Positions 55,699-62,506 of a DNA stretch of 64,000 bases are shown in pieces. The notes beneath the pieces are model-generated. The model was not told the origin of the DNA. It saw only the letters and a program-made list of their open reading frames with translations, and made no database searches. The position numbers and the translations under genes were made by a program. How positions within the stretch are numbered: the stretch's first letter is position 1; each line of letters begins with the position of its first letter. Origin of the DNA: Alphaproteobacteria bacterium (GTDB lineage: Bacteria; Pseudomonadota; Alphaproteobacteria; RF32; CAG-239); the NCBI GenBank assembly GCA_045632645.1, contig JAZQXC010000012.1, positions 16,966 to 80,965 on the forward strand. The letters run 5' to 3'.

Positions 55699-57141
55699 AT
55701 GTGGCAACCTGTTTTGATGATTAATGGTTTTATTGTGTTTGTACTTGGTATTACAATGTTTATACCAGCTTTTTGCCATTTTTATTATATGGGAACTCCT
55801 GACTATATTTTTATTCAAAGTGGTATAACTTCAATGTTTATTGGTGGCCTCTTATTTTTTGCTAACTTTGGTAAATTTGAAAAAATATCGATATTACAAG
55901 GTTATCTTATTACTATTGTATGTTGGTTTTTACTCCCTTTTGTTTGTTCTCTTCCACTGTATAACAATGGCTCTATTACTAATTATATTGATGCATTGTT
56001 TGAAGCAACATCTGGAATAACTGCAACTGGTGCTACAATTTTAAACAATGTTGAAGCTGAGCCTTGCTCTATTTTGCTATGGAGAGCTATGTTAAATGGT
56101 ATGGGGGGGATTGGAATTGTTATCTTTGCTGTTGCTTTAATGCCATTTTTAGGTATTGGTGGTATGCATTTATTTAGTAAAGAAAATTCTGATACTGAAG
56201 AAAAGTTTTTACCTAAAGTTAGGGATATTGCCAAAGATATTATTATTACTTATGTGTTTTTTAGTTTGCTTTGTGCTGTATTGTTAAATTTAGCTGGAAT
56301 GAGTAAATTTGATGCTGTATCTTTTGCAATGTCAACGCTTGGAACTGGTGGTCTTTCACCTAAAAATACATCTGTTCAATTTTTTGACAACCCAATAATT
56401 GAGCTGATTATTGGTATTTTTATGATTATTGGTGCTTTACCTATTACATATTTTATTTTAATTTTCAAAAGAAAGACTTTTTCATCTATTATATCTAATG
56501 AGCAAGTTAATACTTTTCTCAAGCTTATTGCTATTTATATAGCTCTTCTTAGTTGTTTTTATGCGTGTGATGCAAATATAAACTTCTTTAAGTCTTTGAG
56601 ATATGTATCTTTTAATACAATATCGGCAATAACAACAACTGGTCTTACTTCTTCTGACTTTATTAGTTGGGGAAACTGGTCTTTTATTGTGTTTTTAATT
56701 TTTTATATGCATGGCGGATGCACCGGTTCAACAACTGGTTCTATTAAAATATTTAGATGGCAGGTCATTGTTTCGTTTTTCAAGAAAAATTCGATAAAAT
56801 CACTATCTCCTAACCAAGTTACTGTTATGAAAATTGGAGATAAATTGATAGATGACAATATCGTCTCCTCAGTTTTTGTGCTTGTATTTGGTTTTATTTT
56901 TGCAATTGTATTTTTAACTCTTATTCTTTGCTTAACTGGTATTGATTTTGCAACAGCTCTTGGTAGTGTTACTGCTTGTGTTACTAATAGTGGCATTGGT
57001 CTAACAAGTGCAACTGGTCCTAGTGGTAATTTTTTTGAATTTAGTGATTTTGCAAAATCTATACTATCATTTGCGATGGTTTTAGGTCGATTAGAGGTTG
57101 TGGCAGTAATTGTGTTATTTTCTAAGATAAAAACTGCATAA
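55699..57141 (+). CDS. trkH: TrkH/KtrB-family potassium uptake protein
   Basis: Repeated M1-P-M2 pore-like segments: EATSGITATGATIL, MSTLGTGGLSP, ISAITTTGLTS and TACVTNSGIGL. Confidence 0.85.
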   Translation: MWQPVLMINGFIVFVLGITMFIPAFCHFYYMGTPDYIFIQSGITSMFIGGLLFFANFGKFEKISILQGYLITIVCWFLLPFVCSLPLYNNGSITNYIDALFEATSGITATGATILNNVEAEPCSILLWRAMLNGMGGIGIVIFAVALMPFLGIGGMHLFSKENSDTEEKFLPKVRDIAKDIIITYVFFSLLCAVLLNLAGMSKFDAVSFAMSTLGTGGLSPKNTSVQFFDNPIIELIIGIFMIIGALPITYFILIFKRKTFSSIISNEQVNTFLKLIAIYIALLSCFYACDANINFFKSLRYVSFNTISAITTTGLTSSDFISWGNWSFIVFLIFYMHGGCTGSTTGSIKIFRWQVIVSFFKKNSIKSLSPNQVTVMKIGDKLIDDNIVSSVFVLVFGFIFAIVFLTLILCLTGIDFATALGSVTACVTNSGIGLTSATGPSGNFFEFSDFAKSILSFAMVLGRLEVVAVIVLFSKIKTA

Positions 57142-57168
57142 ATAATGTGTTTTTAGTTCAAAAAAAAC

Positions 57169-57197
57169 TTGCTATATAAAAAAATATATTTTATATT
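57169..57197 (+). promoter_or_regulatory. Candidate sigma70-type promoter for rne (TTGCTA-N17-TATATT)
   Basis: The -35 element is at 57169-57174 and the -10 at 57192-57197, which would give a ~260-nt leader. Such matches occur by chance in AT-rich DNA. Confidence 0.3.
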
Positions 57198-57462
57198 CCT
57201 TTTTGTTGTATATTTTGATAAATAGTGCAGAAATAGCAACGGTGTTTTAAATGATTGATAGCATAGAGTTTACACTTTGAACTATACTGCAACAAAATAA
57301 TAAAAAATATCAAAGTATTATGACATTATGTCGAGCTTAAAAAACAACTAATTAATCAAAAACAAACTATTTTTTAAGCATTTATTTTATAAACTAAAGT
57401 GAATTATATATCGTCTTTAAACCAAACTTAGGCGATAATTATTAGATAGGAAATAGAACGTT

Positions 57463-60078
57463 ATGAAAAGAATGTTGATTGATGACACTCAACCGGAAGA
57501 AACACGTGTTGTGATTGTCGATGGTAATAAAATTGAAGATGTAGAGTTTGAAACATGCTCTAAAAAACAAATAAAAGGTAATATTTTTACTGCAAAAGTG
57601 GTTCGTATTGAACCTTCACTACAAGCTGCTTTTATTGATTATGGCGGGAATCGTCATGGTTTTTTAGCTTTTGGTGAAATTCATCCTGACTACTATAATA
57701 TTTCAAATGAAATTAAACAAGAGGTTGAAAAAGAAGTTGATGAAATTATTGAGCGTAAACGCCAATATCAATTAGAGCGTCAAGCTGAACGTGAGCGTCG
57801 TCGTTTAGAACGTGAGCAAAAACGTGCTGAATATGAAGCTCGTATTGCAGCTGAGAAAGCAAATAATGATGCAAAACATTGTGATTGCAAAGCAGAACGT
57901 AAAGTTATTTGCGATTGTTGTTGTGATGCATGGTGTAGCTGTCAAATAGATTATCAAAATATCTCTTCTTGTAAAAAAGAGGATAATGAGACTTCTTTAG
58001 TTAAAGAAAATGAAGTTGTTTCTGATTGTGGCTGTTCTAGCAATTGTGAATGTCGTAAAGAAGACGGATTTTGCCATTGTGCTGAAAATGGCGAATGCAC
58101 ATGCTCTTTAGCTAAAGAAAATGAAGCTTCTATTGTTGAAGCTCAGGAAGAGAATTTAACTGAGTGTGTTGAAAATTCTGATGATACTGAGGTTGTGGTT
58201 GATTCAGAAGACGAAACAACATCTGATATGGAAGAAGAAAACCAACAACGTAAACCTCGTCGTCGTGGAACTAGATTTTTAGGTTGTAGATCTGGTTCTA
58301 AAGGTAAATATAAGGTTGCTTTAGAGGCTAGCGCTATTAAGGATGATTGCTTGGCTGAAAATATCTTAGAAGAAGATGATGATTTTGACGATGATGATGC
58401 TTCTTTTGAAAATAAGCGAAAATCTTATGATAATGACAACGATTGCGATGATGAAGAAGTTGAAGATGGCGATACAGAACGTTATTTAGAAATTCAAAGA
58501 AAGCTTATTTATGCAAGAAAGCTTTATCATCGTTCTTCTATTCAAGATGTTATAAAAGAAGGTCAAACTGTTCTTGTTCAAGTTGTTAAAGAAGAAAGAG
58601 GTAATAAAGGTGCAGCTTGTACGACATATTTGTCTTTAGCTGGTCGTTATTGCGTTTTAATGCCTAACAGAATTAAATCTGGTGGTGTTTCTAGAAAAAT
58701 TACAAGCGCTCAAGATCGTAAGCGTTTGAAAGATTTGATGAAAGAATTACCATTAAATGATGATATGTCTATGATTATTAGAACAGCTGGCGAAGATAAA
58801 AAACGTGAAGATATTATAAGAGATTATAATTACTTAATTCGTACATGGAACCATATCCGTCATAGCGCTTTGAGCTCTCATGTTCCTTCTATTATCTATG
58901 AAGAAGGTGATTTGATTAAACGTGCTCTTCGTGACATGTGCACAAAAGATATTGGTGAAGTTATCATTGATGGGGATAATGCATATAAAGTTGCCAAAGA
59001 CTTTGCAAAAATTTTATCTCCTAATTTAAGCAAAAAGATAAAATGTCGTAAACCAAATGAAATTCCAGTGTTTCAACACTACCAAATCGAAAGAGAATTA
59101 GATAAACTTCATAATCCTATTGTTCAACTTGCTAGTGGTGGTTATTTGGTTATTAACCCAACTGAGGCTTTGGTTGCAATTGACGTTAACTCTGGCCGTG
59201 CAACTGCTGAAATGGATATTGAAGAAACAGCTTTAAAAACTAACCTTGAGGCTGCTGATGAAATTGCTAGACAATTAAAGCTTCGTAACCTTGCTGGTCT
59301 TATTGTTGTTGATTTTATTGACATGGACGAACCTGCTAATAATCATGCTGTTGAAAAACGTATGAAAGAAGCATTAAAATCTGATCGTTCTCGCGTTCAA
59401 ATTGCTAAAATGAGTATTTTTGGTTTATTAGAGATTTCTCGCCAAAGAATGCACTCTTCTTTTGTTGAAAGTAACTATGTAACCTGCCCTTATTGTAAAG
59501 GTCAAGGTGTTCAAAGAACCACAGAATCTGGTGCAAACTTAATACTTAGAGCATTAGAAGAAGAAGGTATTAAAAAAGCGTATAACCATTTAGAGGCTAG
59601 ACTACCTTCTGATACTGCTATTTATATCTTAAATCACAAACGTAGGATTTTAGCAGATTTAGAAGAAAAATACGATATTGAAATTATAATATCTGCTGAT
59701 TCTTCTATTAAAAATATATCTGATTATAAGATTGATCGTACAAAAGTGGTTAAAGAGGTTAAAACTCAAGTTGCAGCAACTTCTGCTTATGATCATGCTT
59801 CTATGTGTGAAACTGATGATGAAGACGAAGAAATTGAAGATGAAGTTATAGAAACTGAAGATAATTATAGAGAAAATAATCGTCGTCAACGTCGAAGATT
59901 TGATAATAGACGCAAATCTAAGATGAAAAATCGTCGTGACAGAAATAATAGAAGAGAACGTGGTAACAATGTTGAAGAGTTTGAAAACAATGTTGTTGAA
60001 ACGGTAAAAGTTGAAGAAGAAGTTGCTATTAAACCAAAAGAAGAAAAGAAAACTTGGTGGAAAAAGCTTATTGGATAA
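57463..60078 (+). CDS. rne: Ribonuclease E with a ~275-residue insertion in the S1 subdomain
   Basis: MKRMLID...ETRVVIVDGNKIEDVEFE, the S1 halves KGNIFTAKVVRIEPSLQAAFIDYGGNRHGFLAF and IQDVIKEGQTVLVQVVKEERGNKGAACTTYLSLAGRY, the DNase-I-like segment LVAIDVNSG...GLIVVDFIDM, the Zn-link CPYCKGQG and an Arg-rich C-terminus are all present. Confidence 0.92.
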   Translation: MKRMLIDDTQPEETRVVIVDGNKIEDVEFETCSKKQIKGNIFTAKVVRIEPSLQAAFIDYGGNRHGFLAFGEIHPDYYNISNEIKQEVEKEVDEIIERKRQYQLERQAERERRRLEREQKRAEYEARIAAEKANNDAKHCDCKAERKVICDCCCDAWCSCQIDYQNISSCKKEDNETSLVKENEVVSDCGCSSNCECRKEDGFCHCAENGECTCSLAKENEASIVEAQEENLTECVENSDDTEVVVDSEDETTSDMEEENQQRKPRRRGTRFLGCRSGSKGKYKVALEASAIKDDCLAENILEEDDDFDDDDASFENKRKSYDNDNDCDDEEVEDGDTERYLEIQRKLIYARKLYHRSSIQDVIKEGQTVLVQVVKEERGNKGAACTTYLSLAGRYCVLMPNRIKSGGVSRKITSAQDRKRLKDLMKELPLNDDMSMIIRTAGEDKKREDIIRDYNYLIRTWNHIRHSALSSHVPSIIYEEGDLIKRALRDMCTKDIGEVIIDGDNAYKVAKDFAKILSPNLSKKIKCRKPNEIPVFQHYQIERELDKLHNPIVQLASGGYLVINPTEALVAIDVNSGRATAEMDIEETALKTNLEAADEIARQLKLRNLAGLIVVDFIDMDEPANNHAVEKRMKEALKSDRSRVQIAKMSIFGLLEISRQRMHSSFVESNYVTCPYCKGQGVQRTTESGANLILRALEEEGIKKAYNHLEARLPSDTAIYILNHKRRILADLEEKYDIEIIISADSSIKNISDYKIDRTKVVKEVKTQVAATSAYDHASMCETDDEDEEIEDEVIETEDNYRENNRRQRRRFDNRRKSKMKNRRDRNNRRERGNNVEEFENNVVETVKVEEEVAIKPKEEKKTWWKKLIG

Positions 60079-60112
60079 ACTTCTTTTAAGCAAAAAAATC
60101 AATATTGCAAAT

Positions 60113-60142
60113 AAAAAAGGAGGCGCATTGCCTCCCTTTTTC
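60113..60142. terminator. Bidirectional terminator between rne and plsC
   Basis: GGAGGC (60119-60124) pairs with GCCTCC (60130-60135) around the loop GCATT. It has an A-run upstream and a T-run downstream. Confidence 0.7.
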
Positions 60143-60862
60143 TTAAACCATTTTTTGACATGCAGTTTCTATTTTATCTTGTAATGCATCCATGAATTCT
60201 TTTTTGCTTTTGTAGTCAGACACTCTCATTGGTTCCATAAATTCAAAAATAACTTTTCCTGGATATTTTATATATGAAGATTTTGGCCAACATGTTCCTG
60301 TATTAAGAGCTACTGGAACTATTGGTAAATCAAGCCCTTCTGATAAGAATACAATACCTGGTTTATAACCTTTTACTTCTAGATGCTTACAACGAGTACC
60401 TTCTGGGAATATAACTATTGAGCGCCCGTCTTCAACACGTTTTTTAGCTTCTTTTAGCATATCTCTCATAGCCTTGCCACCGGACTTTCTATCTATTGGT
60501 ATCATTCCATAAACAGCTTGAGCCCATCCAAAAATAGGAATATATGTTAATTCTTTTTTCATAACAAAGGCTGAGTTTTTAACAATTGCAGTATATAGAT
60601 ATGTCTCCATTGCAGATTCATGTTTGGAGGCATATATTTGTTTTGGGTTAATATATTCTTTTCCTCTTACTTCAACTTCAATTCCGTAAAGCTTTAGAGA
60701 TATTTTAAATACTGCACGATGAATATAATTATCCCAAAAATAAATTGATTTTTTTCGTGAAAATATACCTATTATAACAATTAAGGATAAACCTATCATT
60801 AATGCTGGGTAAAAATAGATATTTCCAATTGTTGAACGTAAAAATAATTTTAACTTATTCAT
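60143..60862 (-). CDS. plsC: 1-acyl-sn-glycerol-3-phosphate acyltransferase
   Basis: N-terminal TM segment, block I as KHESAMET (H-x4-E variant of H-x4-D), block III as IFPEGTR, and PIVPVAL. Confidence 0.75.
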   Translation of the reverse strand: MNKLKLFLRSTIGNIYFYPALMIGLSLIVIIGIFSRKKSIYFWDNYIHRAVFKISLKLYGIEVEVRGKEYINPKQIYASKHESAMETYLYTAIVKNSAFVMKKELTYIPIFGWAQAVYGMIPIDRKSGGKAMRDMLKEAKKRVEDGRSIVIFPEGTRCKHLEVKGYKPGIVFLSEGLDLPIVPVALNTGTCWPKSSYIKYPGKVIFEFMEPMRVSDYKSKKEFMDALQDKIETACQKMV

Positions 60863-61645: not shown

Positions 61646-62506
61646 ATGGAAAAATTACTAGGTGAAGTTCTTAACAAAGAACAATATTTAGACGTTCCAG
61701 AGGAGATTAGCAATCTTTCTAATAGTATTAAAGCAAAACACTTCTTTGAGGAAACCATTGGTATTGATAACATCTTTGTTGCGCCAGTTTTGGTTAAAAT
61801 TACGTCACTTAAGTGTAGTAATTTACTATGTTGGGCGGCAATTAGAGAAGATTTTAAAGAAGTTTTGCGCCTAGCTACAATCTTTAATACTGATATGTCT
61901 CATATAAAGAATTGTGCTATTAAATCTATCGAACTACTAGATAAAGAGTATTACTACATTTGGAATGGTCAGTTCTATTGCGTTATAGGAACGACAACTG
62001 GCGAAGTTGTTCTTAAAAAAGTTTATGGGGTGTGGAGTGAGGCTGATGTTAGGAATTTTATGAAAATTAAAGATCCTGATGCTGTTGCTCCAGATATATT
62101 TCCGGTTGAGTTGTTTTCTATAAGCGGACATAATTTTATTTGTTCAGCTTGGGCTGTTGCTTGTGAAGATGTCGTCTATTGGTATCCTGTGCAATGGGAC
62201 GACTATGATAAACTGCAAAAATATGGCAATAAAGACATCAACATGCTCCCTATTAACGTTGGAGACGTTACAAGGGCTGGAAATATAAACTTTGAGATTT
62301 TATATAATGAAGCGCTAGGATTATATTTTGAAAAAACAGATAAAAAACTATCCTGGCATCATTTATTAAATCAAGAAGATAGTGAGCCTTTGTCTTCGGA
62401 AAAAGGCAAGACAATAAAGCTAGAATTACCTTCTAATCTTAAGAAGCATCAAAAGAGTAAAGATGGTAAAACTTTAACACTATCTCTTAATTCTAGAAAG
62501 AATTAA
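61646..62506 (+). CDS. Hypothetical protein (286 aa)
   Basis: Intact ORF with a strong terminator downstream. No motif recognised. Confidence 0.4.
   Translation: MEKLLGEVLNKEQYLDVPEEISNLSNSIKAKHFFEETIGIDNIFVAPVLVKITSLKCSNLLCWAAIREDFKEVLRLATIFNTDMSHIKNCAIKSIELLDKEYYYIWNGQFYCVIGTTTGEVVLKKVYGVWSEADVRNFMKIKDPDAVAPDIFPVELFSISGHNFICSAWAVACEDVVYWYPVQWDDYDKLQKYGNKDINMLPINVGDVTRAGNINFEILYNEALGLYFEKTDKKLSWHHLLNQEDSEPLSSEKGKTIKLELPSNLKKHQKSKDGKTLTLSLNSRKN

Follow-up and report, generated by a model that had tools for sequence, protein, structure and literature searches.

RNase E Inserts and Putative Cysteine-Rich Metal Sites

RNase E governs global mRNA decay in Proteobacteria, and the enzymes of Alphaproteobacteria are known to carry an insert in the S1 domain, the function of which is only partly understood. 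As described in sections of Voss et al. 2014 (PMC4245959), this insert comprises 50-150 residues and is charged and predicted to be disordered; in RNase E from Caulobacter, it lies over the RNA-binding site, within the fragment that binds RhlB. The present analysis concerns rne, located at positions 57463..60078 (plus strand) of a 64,000-nucleotide stretch of contig JAZQXC010000012.1 from an alphaproteobacterial draft genome (GCA_045632645.1); the whole stretch is called the window, and coordinates refer to it. The encoded RNase E, 871 residues in length, displays an S1 insert of 281 residues that contains two dense cysteine clusters, termed A and B. A long charged insert characterizes the entire family, only one genus displays the cysteine clusters, and the cysteine modules are the new element in an otherwise known type of enzyme. 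We lean towards reading the clusters as a lineage-specific, modular metal-thiolate (metallothionein-like) element embedded in a disordered tether beside the RNA channel.

The alignment to RNase E from Caulobacter crescentus (PDB code, 4OXP) identifies the window insert with the known alphaproteobacterial S1 insert, which the first-pass annotation of this DNA had mentioned as background: the insertion point directly follows the HPDYY motif, and the insert start, acidic tract 2, and helix 2 align to the Caulobacter fragment. The fixed position, the high charge, and the partly helical, mostly disordered character (predicted local distance difference test, pLDDT, ~30 outside the helices) are those of alphaproteobacterial S1 inserts. 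On the other hand, the insert is longer than the 50-150 residues given in the cited sections, and comprises in addition an Arg-rich patch and the cysteine modules.

An architectural parallel to the modules is found in the fungal copper-thioneins, represented in the relevant sections of PMC4755600 by the 7-Cys unit of Neurospora and Agaricus, CnMT1/2 from Cryptococcus, and TmMT from Tremella, with patterns such as CXCX3CSC... and X2-[CXC]-X5-[CXC]-X3-[CXC]-X2-C and a history of modular tandem amplification. As far as these descriptions go, the two groups share the CxC pairs, the CXC-X3-CXC start, the organization in spacer-separated units, and the tandem amplification; nevertheless, the fungal proteins are free-standing and rich in Pro, Gly, and Lys, whereas the modules studied here contain 8 Cys, are acidic, use other spacers, and form part of an enzyme. 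No sequence match between the two groups reached significance; shared ancestry is unlikely, and the likeness suggests convergence at most.

Disordered, cysteine-rich metal sites attached to abundant housekeeping proteins, and present in some lineages only, include (i) the Cys/His-rich metal-binding tails of SlyD and of HspA from Helicobacter pylori, (ii) the zinc-thiolate redox switch of Hsp33, and (iii) the zinc ribbons that distinguish C+ from C- ribosomal proteins. The modules, as putative metal sites, resemble these examples in all such respects, but they show no sequence relation to them, reside in another host protein, and form part of an internal loop of a nuclease instead of a terminal tail. 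A cysteine-based metal site occurs in the same polypeptide, the Zn-link of RNase E (CPxCxGxG, residues 675-682; 59485..59508, plus strand), which lies outside the insert, aligns to CPRCSGTG of the Escherichia coli enzyme, and is conserved here, with C675, C678, G680, and G682 invariant across 27 RNase E sequences. The Zn-link belongs to the small-domain region and is universal in RNase E, whereas the cysteine modules are additional, located in the S1 domain, and genus-specific.

Cysteine Clusters and the Eight-Cysteine Module

The limits of the insert (residues 79-359; 57697..58539, plus strand) are given by the conserved halves of the S1 domain. In the alignment to E. coli RNase E (PDB code, 2VMK), residues 1-79 match residues 1-79 and residues 355-744 match residues 85-474, so that residues 80-354 are left unmatched, ~275 residues against ~5 in E. 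coli, and not the ~15 stated in the first-pass annotation. The presence of an RNase E with a charged insert at this place, also proposed there, is supported by the open reading frame (ORF), the Pfam matches, the 2VMK alignment, and the composition of the insert (76 D/E, 45 K/R, and 21 Cys). Seventeen of the cysteines occur within 75 residues (residues 140-214; 57880-58104), at positions 140, 142, 150, 152, 153, 154, 158, 160, 170, 189, 191, 195, 197, 204, 206, 212, and 214, and are arranged as seven CxC pairs and one CCC run, confirming the mostly CxC arrangement first noticed in the translation. Cysteine accounts for 1.26% of the residues in the 1174 ORFs of at least 150 residues in the genome; among these the RNase E stretch ranks first, with 17 Cys per 76-residue window and 13 in the next ORF, and the binomial probability of at least 17 cysteines in 75 residues is 7.5e-17.

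The cysteines are distributed over (i) cluster A (residues 139-161; 57877..57945, plus strand), with 8 Cys including the CCC run and a pLDDT below 40 in the AlphaFold2 model, (ii) a linker behind it (residues 162-186, plus strand) carrying the lone ninth cysteine, C170, and (iii) module B (residues 187-214; 58021..58104, plus strand), supported by alignment A1 and the profile described below, which contains 8 Cys in 26 residues, a CHC pair, and E-D/N-G turns. The full-length AlphaFold2 model, calculated from 27 sequences, is poor (mean pLDDT 58), and within it module B stands out as an island of moderate confidence (pLDDT 63-68 vs ~30 in the linkers). Modelled alone, as 36 residues, the module is predicted to form a short helix and a hairpin (pLDDT 64.5).

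Most members of the genus display a module with the pattern [CxC]x3[CxC]x6[CxC]x5[CxC] and the consensus xGCGCSxxCxCRxEDGxCHCAENGVCTC, behind which another ..CHC is frequently seen. Alignment A1, comprising 17 copies from 13 genomes, shows the 8 Cys and G16 to be invariant, with R12 and E22 present in at least 90% of the copies. The profile built from this alignment was searched against the own genome, the genus, the order, the class, and 1.84e9 representative proteins. It matched once in the own genome, within rne, and 29 times in 20 of the 36 genomes of the genus, always in rne frames and nowhere else in those genomes; no match was obtained in the 247 genomes from 23 other genera of the order, nor in 400 genomes from 307 other genera of the class. 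No stand-alone copy of the module was observed in the own genome, in 283 genomes of the order, or among the representative proteins. The only match among the latter, P0002, is a 424-residue fragment of a near-identical orthologue that retains 16 of the 17 clustered cysteines (all but C170), including 8/8 in cluster A. The same 8-Cys spacing recurs in P0002 and in four genomes that did not contribute to the profile (G041, G043, G046, and G051). A word-indexed homologue search with residues 130-220 retrieved only the protein of the window.

The number of copies varies between inserts. A single module occurs in the window and, for example, in L003, L004, and L015, two occur in L002, L019, and L125, and four are found in L007 (genome G022) as near-perfect 23-residue repeats (residues 146-245). 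Variant spacings are seen in L002, L011, L123, and L124. A CCC-containing cluster similar to cluster A occupies the equivalent position in L010 and L013, and cluster A looks like a diverged half-module. In the window, Tandem Repeats Finder reported no DNA-level tandem array in the cysteine region, with arrays restricted to the 3' part of rne. As a separate observation, the largest arrays, with 30-33 Cys per insert, belong to sister species of the clade of the window, L007 (G022) and L021 (G004).

Distribution of the Insert and of the Cysteine Clusters

In a sample of 20 RNase E genes, drawn from 16 further genera of this family, the inserts range from 185 to 298 residues and follow a common layout of helix, linker, basic patch, acidic tract, and helix, with 0-2 Cys and no CxC pair. 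Outside the family, eight genomes from the order and class gave readable inserts, of 50-207 residues and free of cysteine; a ninth, L027, was left out because its motifs could not be parsed. In a wider genome collection, 74 inserts were readable among the 80 matches listed, 70 of them with 0-1 Cys and four cysteine-rich (12-30 Cys), all four assigned to the genus of the window by coordinates and title.

Of the 36 genomes of the genus, 29 yielded an RNase E, and in 26 of these the insert is complete (252-362 residues). Conservation among the nearest relatives, on which the first-pass annotation had made its proposal depend, stands for the 21 inserts with at least 8 Cys (up to 33) and does not extend to five others, since the cluster is missing or nearly missing in four genomes (0-1 Cys) and degenerate in one (5 Cys). 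Such lineages show that the module is dispensable. RNase E was not detected in the remaining seven genomes, two of them 96-98% complete. In three genomes of the genus, rne is broken at contig ends inside the module array (G021:C43:1-99 and G021:C33:2-97; G005:C30:8161-8220; G004:C23/C57), probably because tandem modules break short-read assemblies, and the copy numbers may therefore be underestimated.

Evolution and Constraint

A maximum-likelihood tree calculated from the 420 residues behind the insert (37 rows, without L027) recovers the genus as a 100/100 clade with an unresolved base. One clade (100/99) unites the cysteine-free inserts L128, L012, and L127; L009, with its single Cys, falls among module carriers, and L008 (5 Cys) looks degenerate. 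The module has thus been lost at least once, probably two or three times, or alternatively the cysteine-free clade never had it. Copy number differs between genes with almost identical cores, one in L005 and two in L125, and no DNA difference separates the two copies of L019, which indicates that amplification is ongoing.

Across 17 species, the ratio of nonsynonymous to synonymous differences (pN/pS) amounts to 0.25 in the module, 0.45 in its non-cysteine codons, and 0.125 in the catalytic core, and at each cysteine position TGT and TGC are used about 50:50 between species. In global alignments of the whole variable linker for 18 species pairs, prepared without selection by pattern, cysteine columns were identical in 209/318 cases and other columns in 1213/2988 (L003-L015, 12/12 vs 40%; L015-L020, 11/12 vs 33%), with the cysteine mismatches arising mostly from differences in copy number. 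Comparison of the window with P0002 discloses the same trend, modules A and B being identical at 18/23 and 22/28 positions (78-79%) and the linkers at 13/26 and 18/52 (35-50%).

Independent Sequence Support

The window derives from a draft genome of 17 contigs, and a sequencing or assembly chimera of this metagenome-assembled genome (MAG) had to be considered as the source of the cysteine region. Nevertheless, the 831-base stretch is present in 20 public runs from 14 studies, all of them animal gut or manure metagenomes, and single contigs from four runs of four studies bridge the cysteine region with 4-9 substitutions and no indels: X2 record 8 (57649-58501, 9 differences), X3 record 11 (57679-58261, 6 differences), X1 record 2 (57739-58284, 4 differences), and X6 record 19 (57752-58235, 7 differences). 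Since independent contigs bridge the region, it is not an assembly artefact; together with the orthologous modules in 19 other genomes and the intact reading frame, they refute the chimera raised as a check by the first-pass annotation, and we assign this explanation a negligible probability.

The contigs contain 21 translated variant sites (57630-58470), 16 synonymous and five nonsynonymous, the latter corresponding to A144V, C154Y (X3 only), A222T, D241Y, and C275R (all four runs). In module B, the runs differ only by synonymous changes, at C212 and C214. Residue 275 (nucleotide 58285), inside the RFLG-R motif, is Cys in the window and Arg in the contigs of all four runs and in the orthologues; comparison of these sequences marks C275 as a strain-specific substitution or a consensus error of the MAG. 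A further X3 contig joins 57752 to 58540, omitting 787 bases, with a side of 29 letters; it probably derives from the conserved flanks of a relative and was not used as evidence.

The Metal-Thiolate Reading and Its Alternatives

The reading of the clusters as metallothionein-like, put forward from the sequence by the first-pass annotation, holds for composition and pattern and finds no confirmation from matches above threshold. By the usual definition, the modules show the high content of cysteine in CxC and CC arrangements typical of metallothioneins, but they belong to an 871-residue enzyme and not to a small, free-standing protein. All weak Pfam matches of the 17 module copies are to metallothionein families: PF00131 in 4/17 (best E 0.0057), PF02067 in 7/17, and PF02068 in 1/17. 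The module of the window itself has no Pfam metallothionein match, and the insert does not match the bacterial metallothionein family SmtA/BmtA (PF02069), for which the best scores elsewhere in the genome are 15.7 and 15.0 bits, below the cut-off of 33. A Pfam search of the cysteine stretch and of the whole insert with E values up to 10 returned only a methyltransferase row attributable to chance. Full-text literature searches retrieved unrelated papers only and no account of a metallothionein-like, tandemly amplified cysteine module in an RNase E S1 insert, in line with the remark of the first-pass annotation, which was aware of no described RNase E with such a cluster.

Several observations weigh against a metal-thiolate element. 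No metallothionein family reached the Pfam threshold for any module copy, phmmer and profile searches of the PDB gave only a non-significant eggshell Cys-rich protein, Foldseek comparison of the module model with the PDB found nothing below E = 3.6, and the ESM Atlas provided no usable match. The modules are strongly acidic, unlike the classical Lys-rich metallothioneins, and cluster A contains W and Y. Besides these differences, one strain (X3) carries C154Y in cluster A, 4/26 inserts of the genus retain 0-1 Cys and 1/26 only 5, and the cysteine-free clade keeps an insert of equal length. The absence of nonsynonymous change at the cysteine codons (pN = 0) is a circular result because the sequences were chosen by their cysteine pattern; the BLOSUM62 linker alignments favour Cys-Cys pairing, and the species pairs are not independent. 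Finally, plain repeat instability could account for the change in copy number between near-identical genes.

According to the metal-thiolate reading, the alphaproteobacterial S1 insert has grown to ~280 residues in a family of uncultured gut bacteria, and within its variable linker one genus has evolved cysteine modules, CxC pairs split by short E-D/N-G turns, subsequently amplified in tandem to give 0-4 copies. A 26-residue module comprises 8 Cys (~30%), a conserved His, D/N-G turns, and no more than one or two hydrophobic residues. With so few of these it cannot build a protein core. Inside a gut anaerobe, whose cytoplasm is reducing, it would be expected to fold around a metal-thiolate cluster, and by this reasoning most likely folds only around one, in the manner of metallothionein building blocks; Zn(II) and Cu(I) are the prime candidates, by analogy with the stoichiometries known for metallothionein domains, such as Zn3Cys9 in the abstract of PMC10243857. 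On one side the modules are flanked by a helical stalk, positioned above the RNA site in the Caulobacter enzyme, and on the other by the conserved Arg-rich patch. A fold held by metal would give the otherwise disordered tether beside the RNA channel a metal-dependent, and therefore also oxidation-dependent, knot. Metal loading, or metal loss on oxidation, would then shorten or release the tether, and could act as a switch on the access of substrate or partner; alternatively, the modules may simply serve metal buffering by an abundant protein. The anatomy, distribution, and conservation of the modules are seen directly in the sequences, metal binding and any such regulatory effect are what we infer, and the existence of whole lineages without the module points to an accessory rather than a core role.

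The presence, in one genus only, of metallothionein-looking modules within its main RNA-degrading enzyme hints that RNA decay there may be tied to metals or oxidation. A more ambitious form of the same idea, which we consider improbable as a whole, holds that a modular metal-thiolate sensor was born de novo by amplification of an 8-9-residue CxC-E-D/N-G unit in the disordered S1 loop, that Zn/Cu loading or oxidation, by folding or unfolding the knot, couples global mRNA decay or the formation of degradosomes and condensates to metal or oxygen exposure in the animal gut, and that the copy number (0-4) is tuned between species. If the modules do bind metal, they would constitute (i) a natural metal- or redox-dependent fold in a disordered regulatory loop of an essential nuclease and (ii) a clear example of how a metal-binding element recently arose de novo and grew by modules. 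Close relatives carrying 0, 1, 2, or 4 copies would then serve as natural controls. If they bind none, the modules still illustrate the ease with which new sequence is taken up by the S1 insert.

A rival reading denies the modules a specific function. A CxC unit amplified by slippage in a tolerant, disordered linker, recent in origin and weakly constrained, would be expected to settle where the modules in fact reside, in the segment of the insert that varies most, to range from 0 to 4 copies even between near-identical genes, to be lost or to degenerate as in the L128/L012/L127 clade, L009, and L008, to adopt other spacings as in L002, L011, and L124, and to break assemblies as at the contig ends of G021 and G005. 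Such a near-neutral expansion is nevertheless difficult to reconcile with the occurrence of the module in nearly every subclade of a genus whose proteins share 63-78% overall identity, with invariant Cys and Gly and conserved R, E, D, N, and H residues beside flanks that cannot be aligned, and with cysteine codons at which synonymous turnover is saturated and no loss is seen in carriers. Cysteine is, moreover, rare in the proteome (1.26%) and the same linker lacks it in 16 other genera. Taken together, we regard a purely near-neutral origin as unlikely, although it retains an appreciable share of the probability.

Two further alternatives preserve a function and change its chemistry. CxC redox switches are well known, and the CxC and CGC pairs, the gut-anaerobe habitat, and the site beside the RNA channel would suit a metal-free thiol/disulfide module, in which disulfides formed under oxygen or reactive oxygen species reshape the tether or crosslink protomers. 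We consider this quite unlikely, given that 8 to 33 Cys per insert far exceed the needs of a redox switch, the conserved His and the E-D/N-G turns better fit metal knuckles, and Pfam detects no thioredoxin-like or other known redox domain in the insert or the modules. An iron-sulfur cluster that renders RNase E responsive to oxygen or iron is less probable still, and we retain it as an outside chance: the many cysteines, an anaerobe likely rich in iron-sulfur proteins, and other cysteine-dense ORFs in the genome speak for it, but no iron-sulfur family appears even among the weak Pfam matches, unlike metallothionein families, and CxC doublets with x3, x5, and x6 spacers deviate from the usual CxxC-type spacings of iron-sulfur sites.

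Architecture of the Remaining Insert

The insert begins with helix 1 (residues 79-136; 57697..57870, plus strand), an R/E-rich segment conserved in the genus and the family, which AlphaFold2 predicts as a helix from 82 to 142 (block pLDDT 86-92); 52 of its 58 residues are identical in P0002, and the same motif occurs family-wide. Following module B, an acidic variable linker (residues 215-262; 58105..58248, plus strand) contains 18 D/E and a single K/R, and shares only 18/52 columns with the near-identical P0002. The conserved Arg/Lys-rich patch (residues 263-290; 58249..58332, plus strand), present in the genus consensus, comprises 10 K/R in 28 residues, 24 of them identical in P0002, and may represent a partner- or RNA-binding segment. 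The patch displays an RFLG core, and its counterpart in the 16 other genera of the family is likewise basic and precedes an ELKVLSE-like motif. Acidic tract 2 (residues 291-335; 58333..58467, plus strand; 22 D/E), which aligns to the acidic tract of Caulobacter 4OXP, leads into helix 2 (residues 336-359; 58468..58539, plus strand), which returns the chain to the S1 domain and aligns to the helix of the Caulobacter insert; AlphaFold2 predicts it from 335 to 357, and 23/24 residues are identical in P0002.

Gene Identity and Genomic Setting

The rne gene is an intact ORF whose product matches E. coli RNase E structures at 2e-129. It comprises (i) the S1 domain (PF00575, residues 36-105, 1.5e-09, 38.5 bits), split by the insert, (ii) the catalytic domain RNase_E_G (PF10150, residues 391-663, 1e-97, 327.3 bits against a cut-off of 25.5), and (iii) RNase_E_G_Thio, the RNase E/G thioredoxin-like domain (residues 674-759, 9e-24). 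The protein exceeds the cut-off of the NCBIfam Rne/Rng model TIGR00757 (499.8 bits vs 325.95) and does not reach that of the RNase E equivalog NF008074 (PRK10811; 503.2 bits vs 908), a model derived from gammaproteobacterial enzymes whose C-terminal half is long. A catalytic domain above the curated cut-off, the S1 subdomain, and the Zn-link place the protein within RNase E/G; the Caulobacter-type insert and the existence of a separate RNase G-like paralogue (G000:C2:17124-18038, 30% identity) assign it to RNase E rather than RNase G. It is a genuine, vertically inherited RNase E, and its base composition carries no foreign-DNA signature (GC 0.35-0.38 in the insert vs 0.32-0.35 in the remaining gene).

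The genome comprises 1.59 Mb with 32% GC, and the closest named records are MAGs from the guts of ruminants and other animals. The neighbours of rne are housekeeping genes, encoding TrkH upstream and, on the opposite strand downstream, an acyltransferase and a DUF218 protein; a further downstream ORF of 286 residues (61646-62506, plus strand) has no Pfam match at E <= 0.001. An Rfam scan of 57000-60300 gave only sub-threshold small RNA rows and no rne leader family. At the C-terminus, W865 and W866 (60055-60060) show no variation among the 27 RNase E sequences aligned from across the class; in the Caulobacter enzyme, PNPase binds to a C-terminal GWW motif. The tail behind the catalytic half measures only ~110 residues, which makes the S1 insert the largest disordered region of this RNase E.

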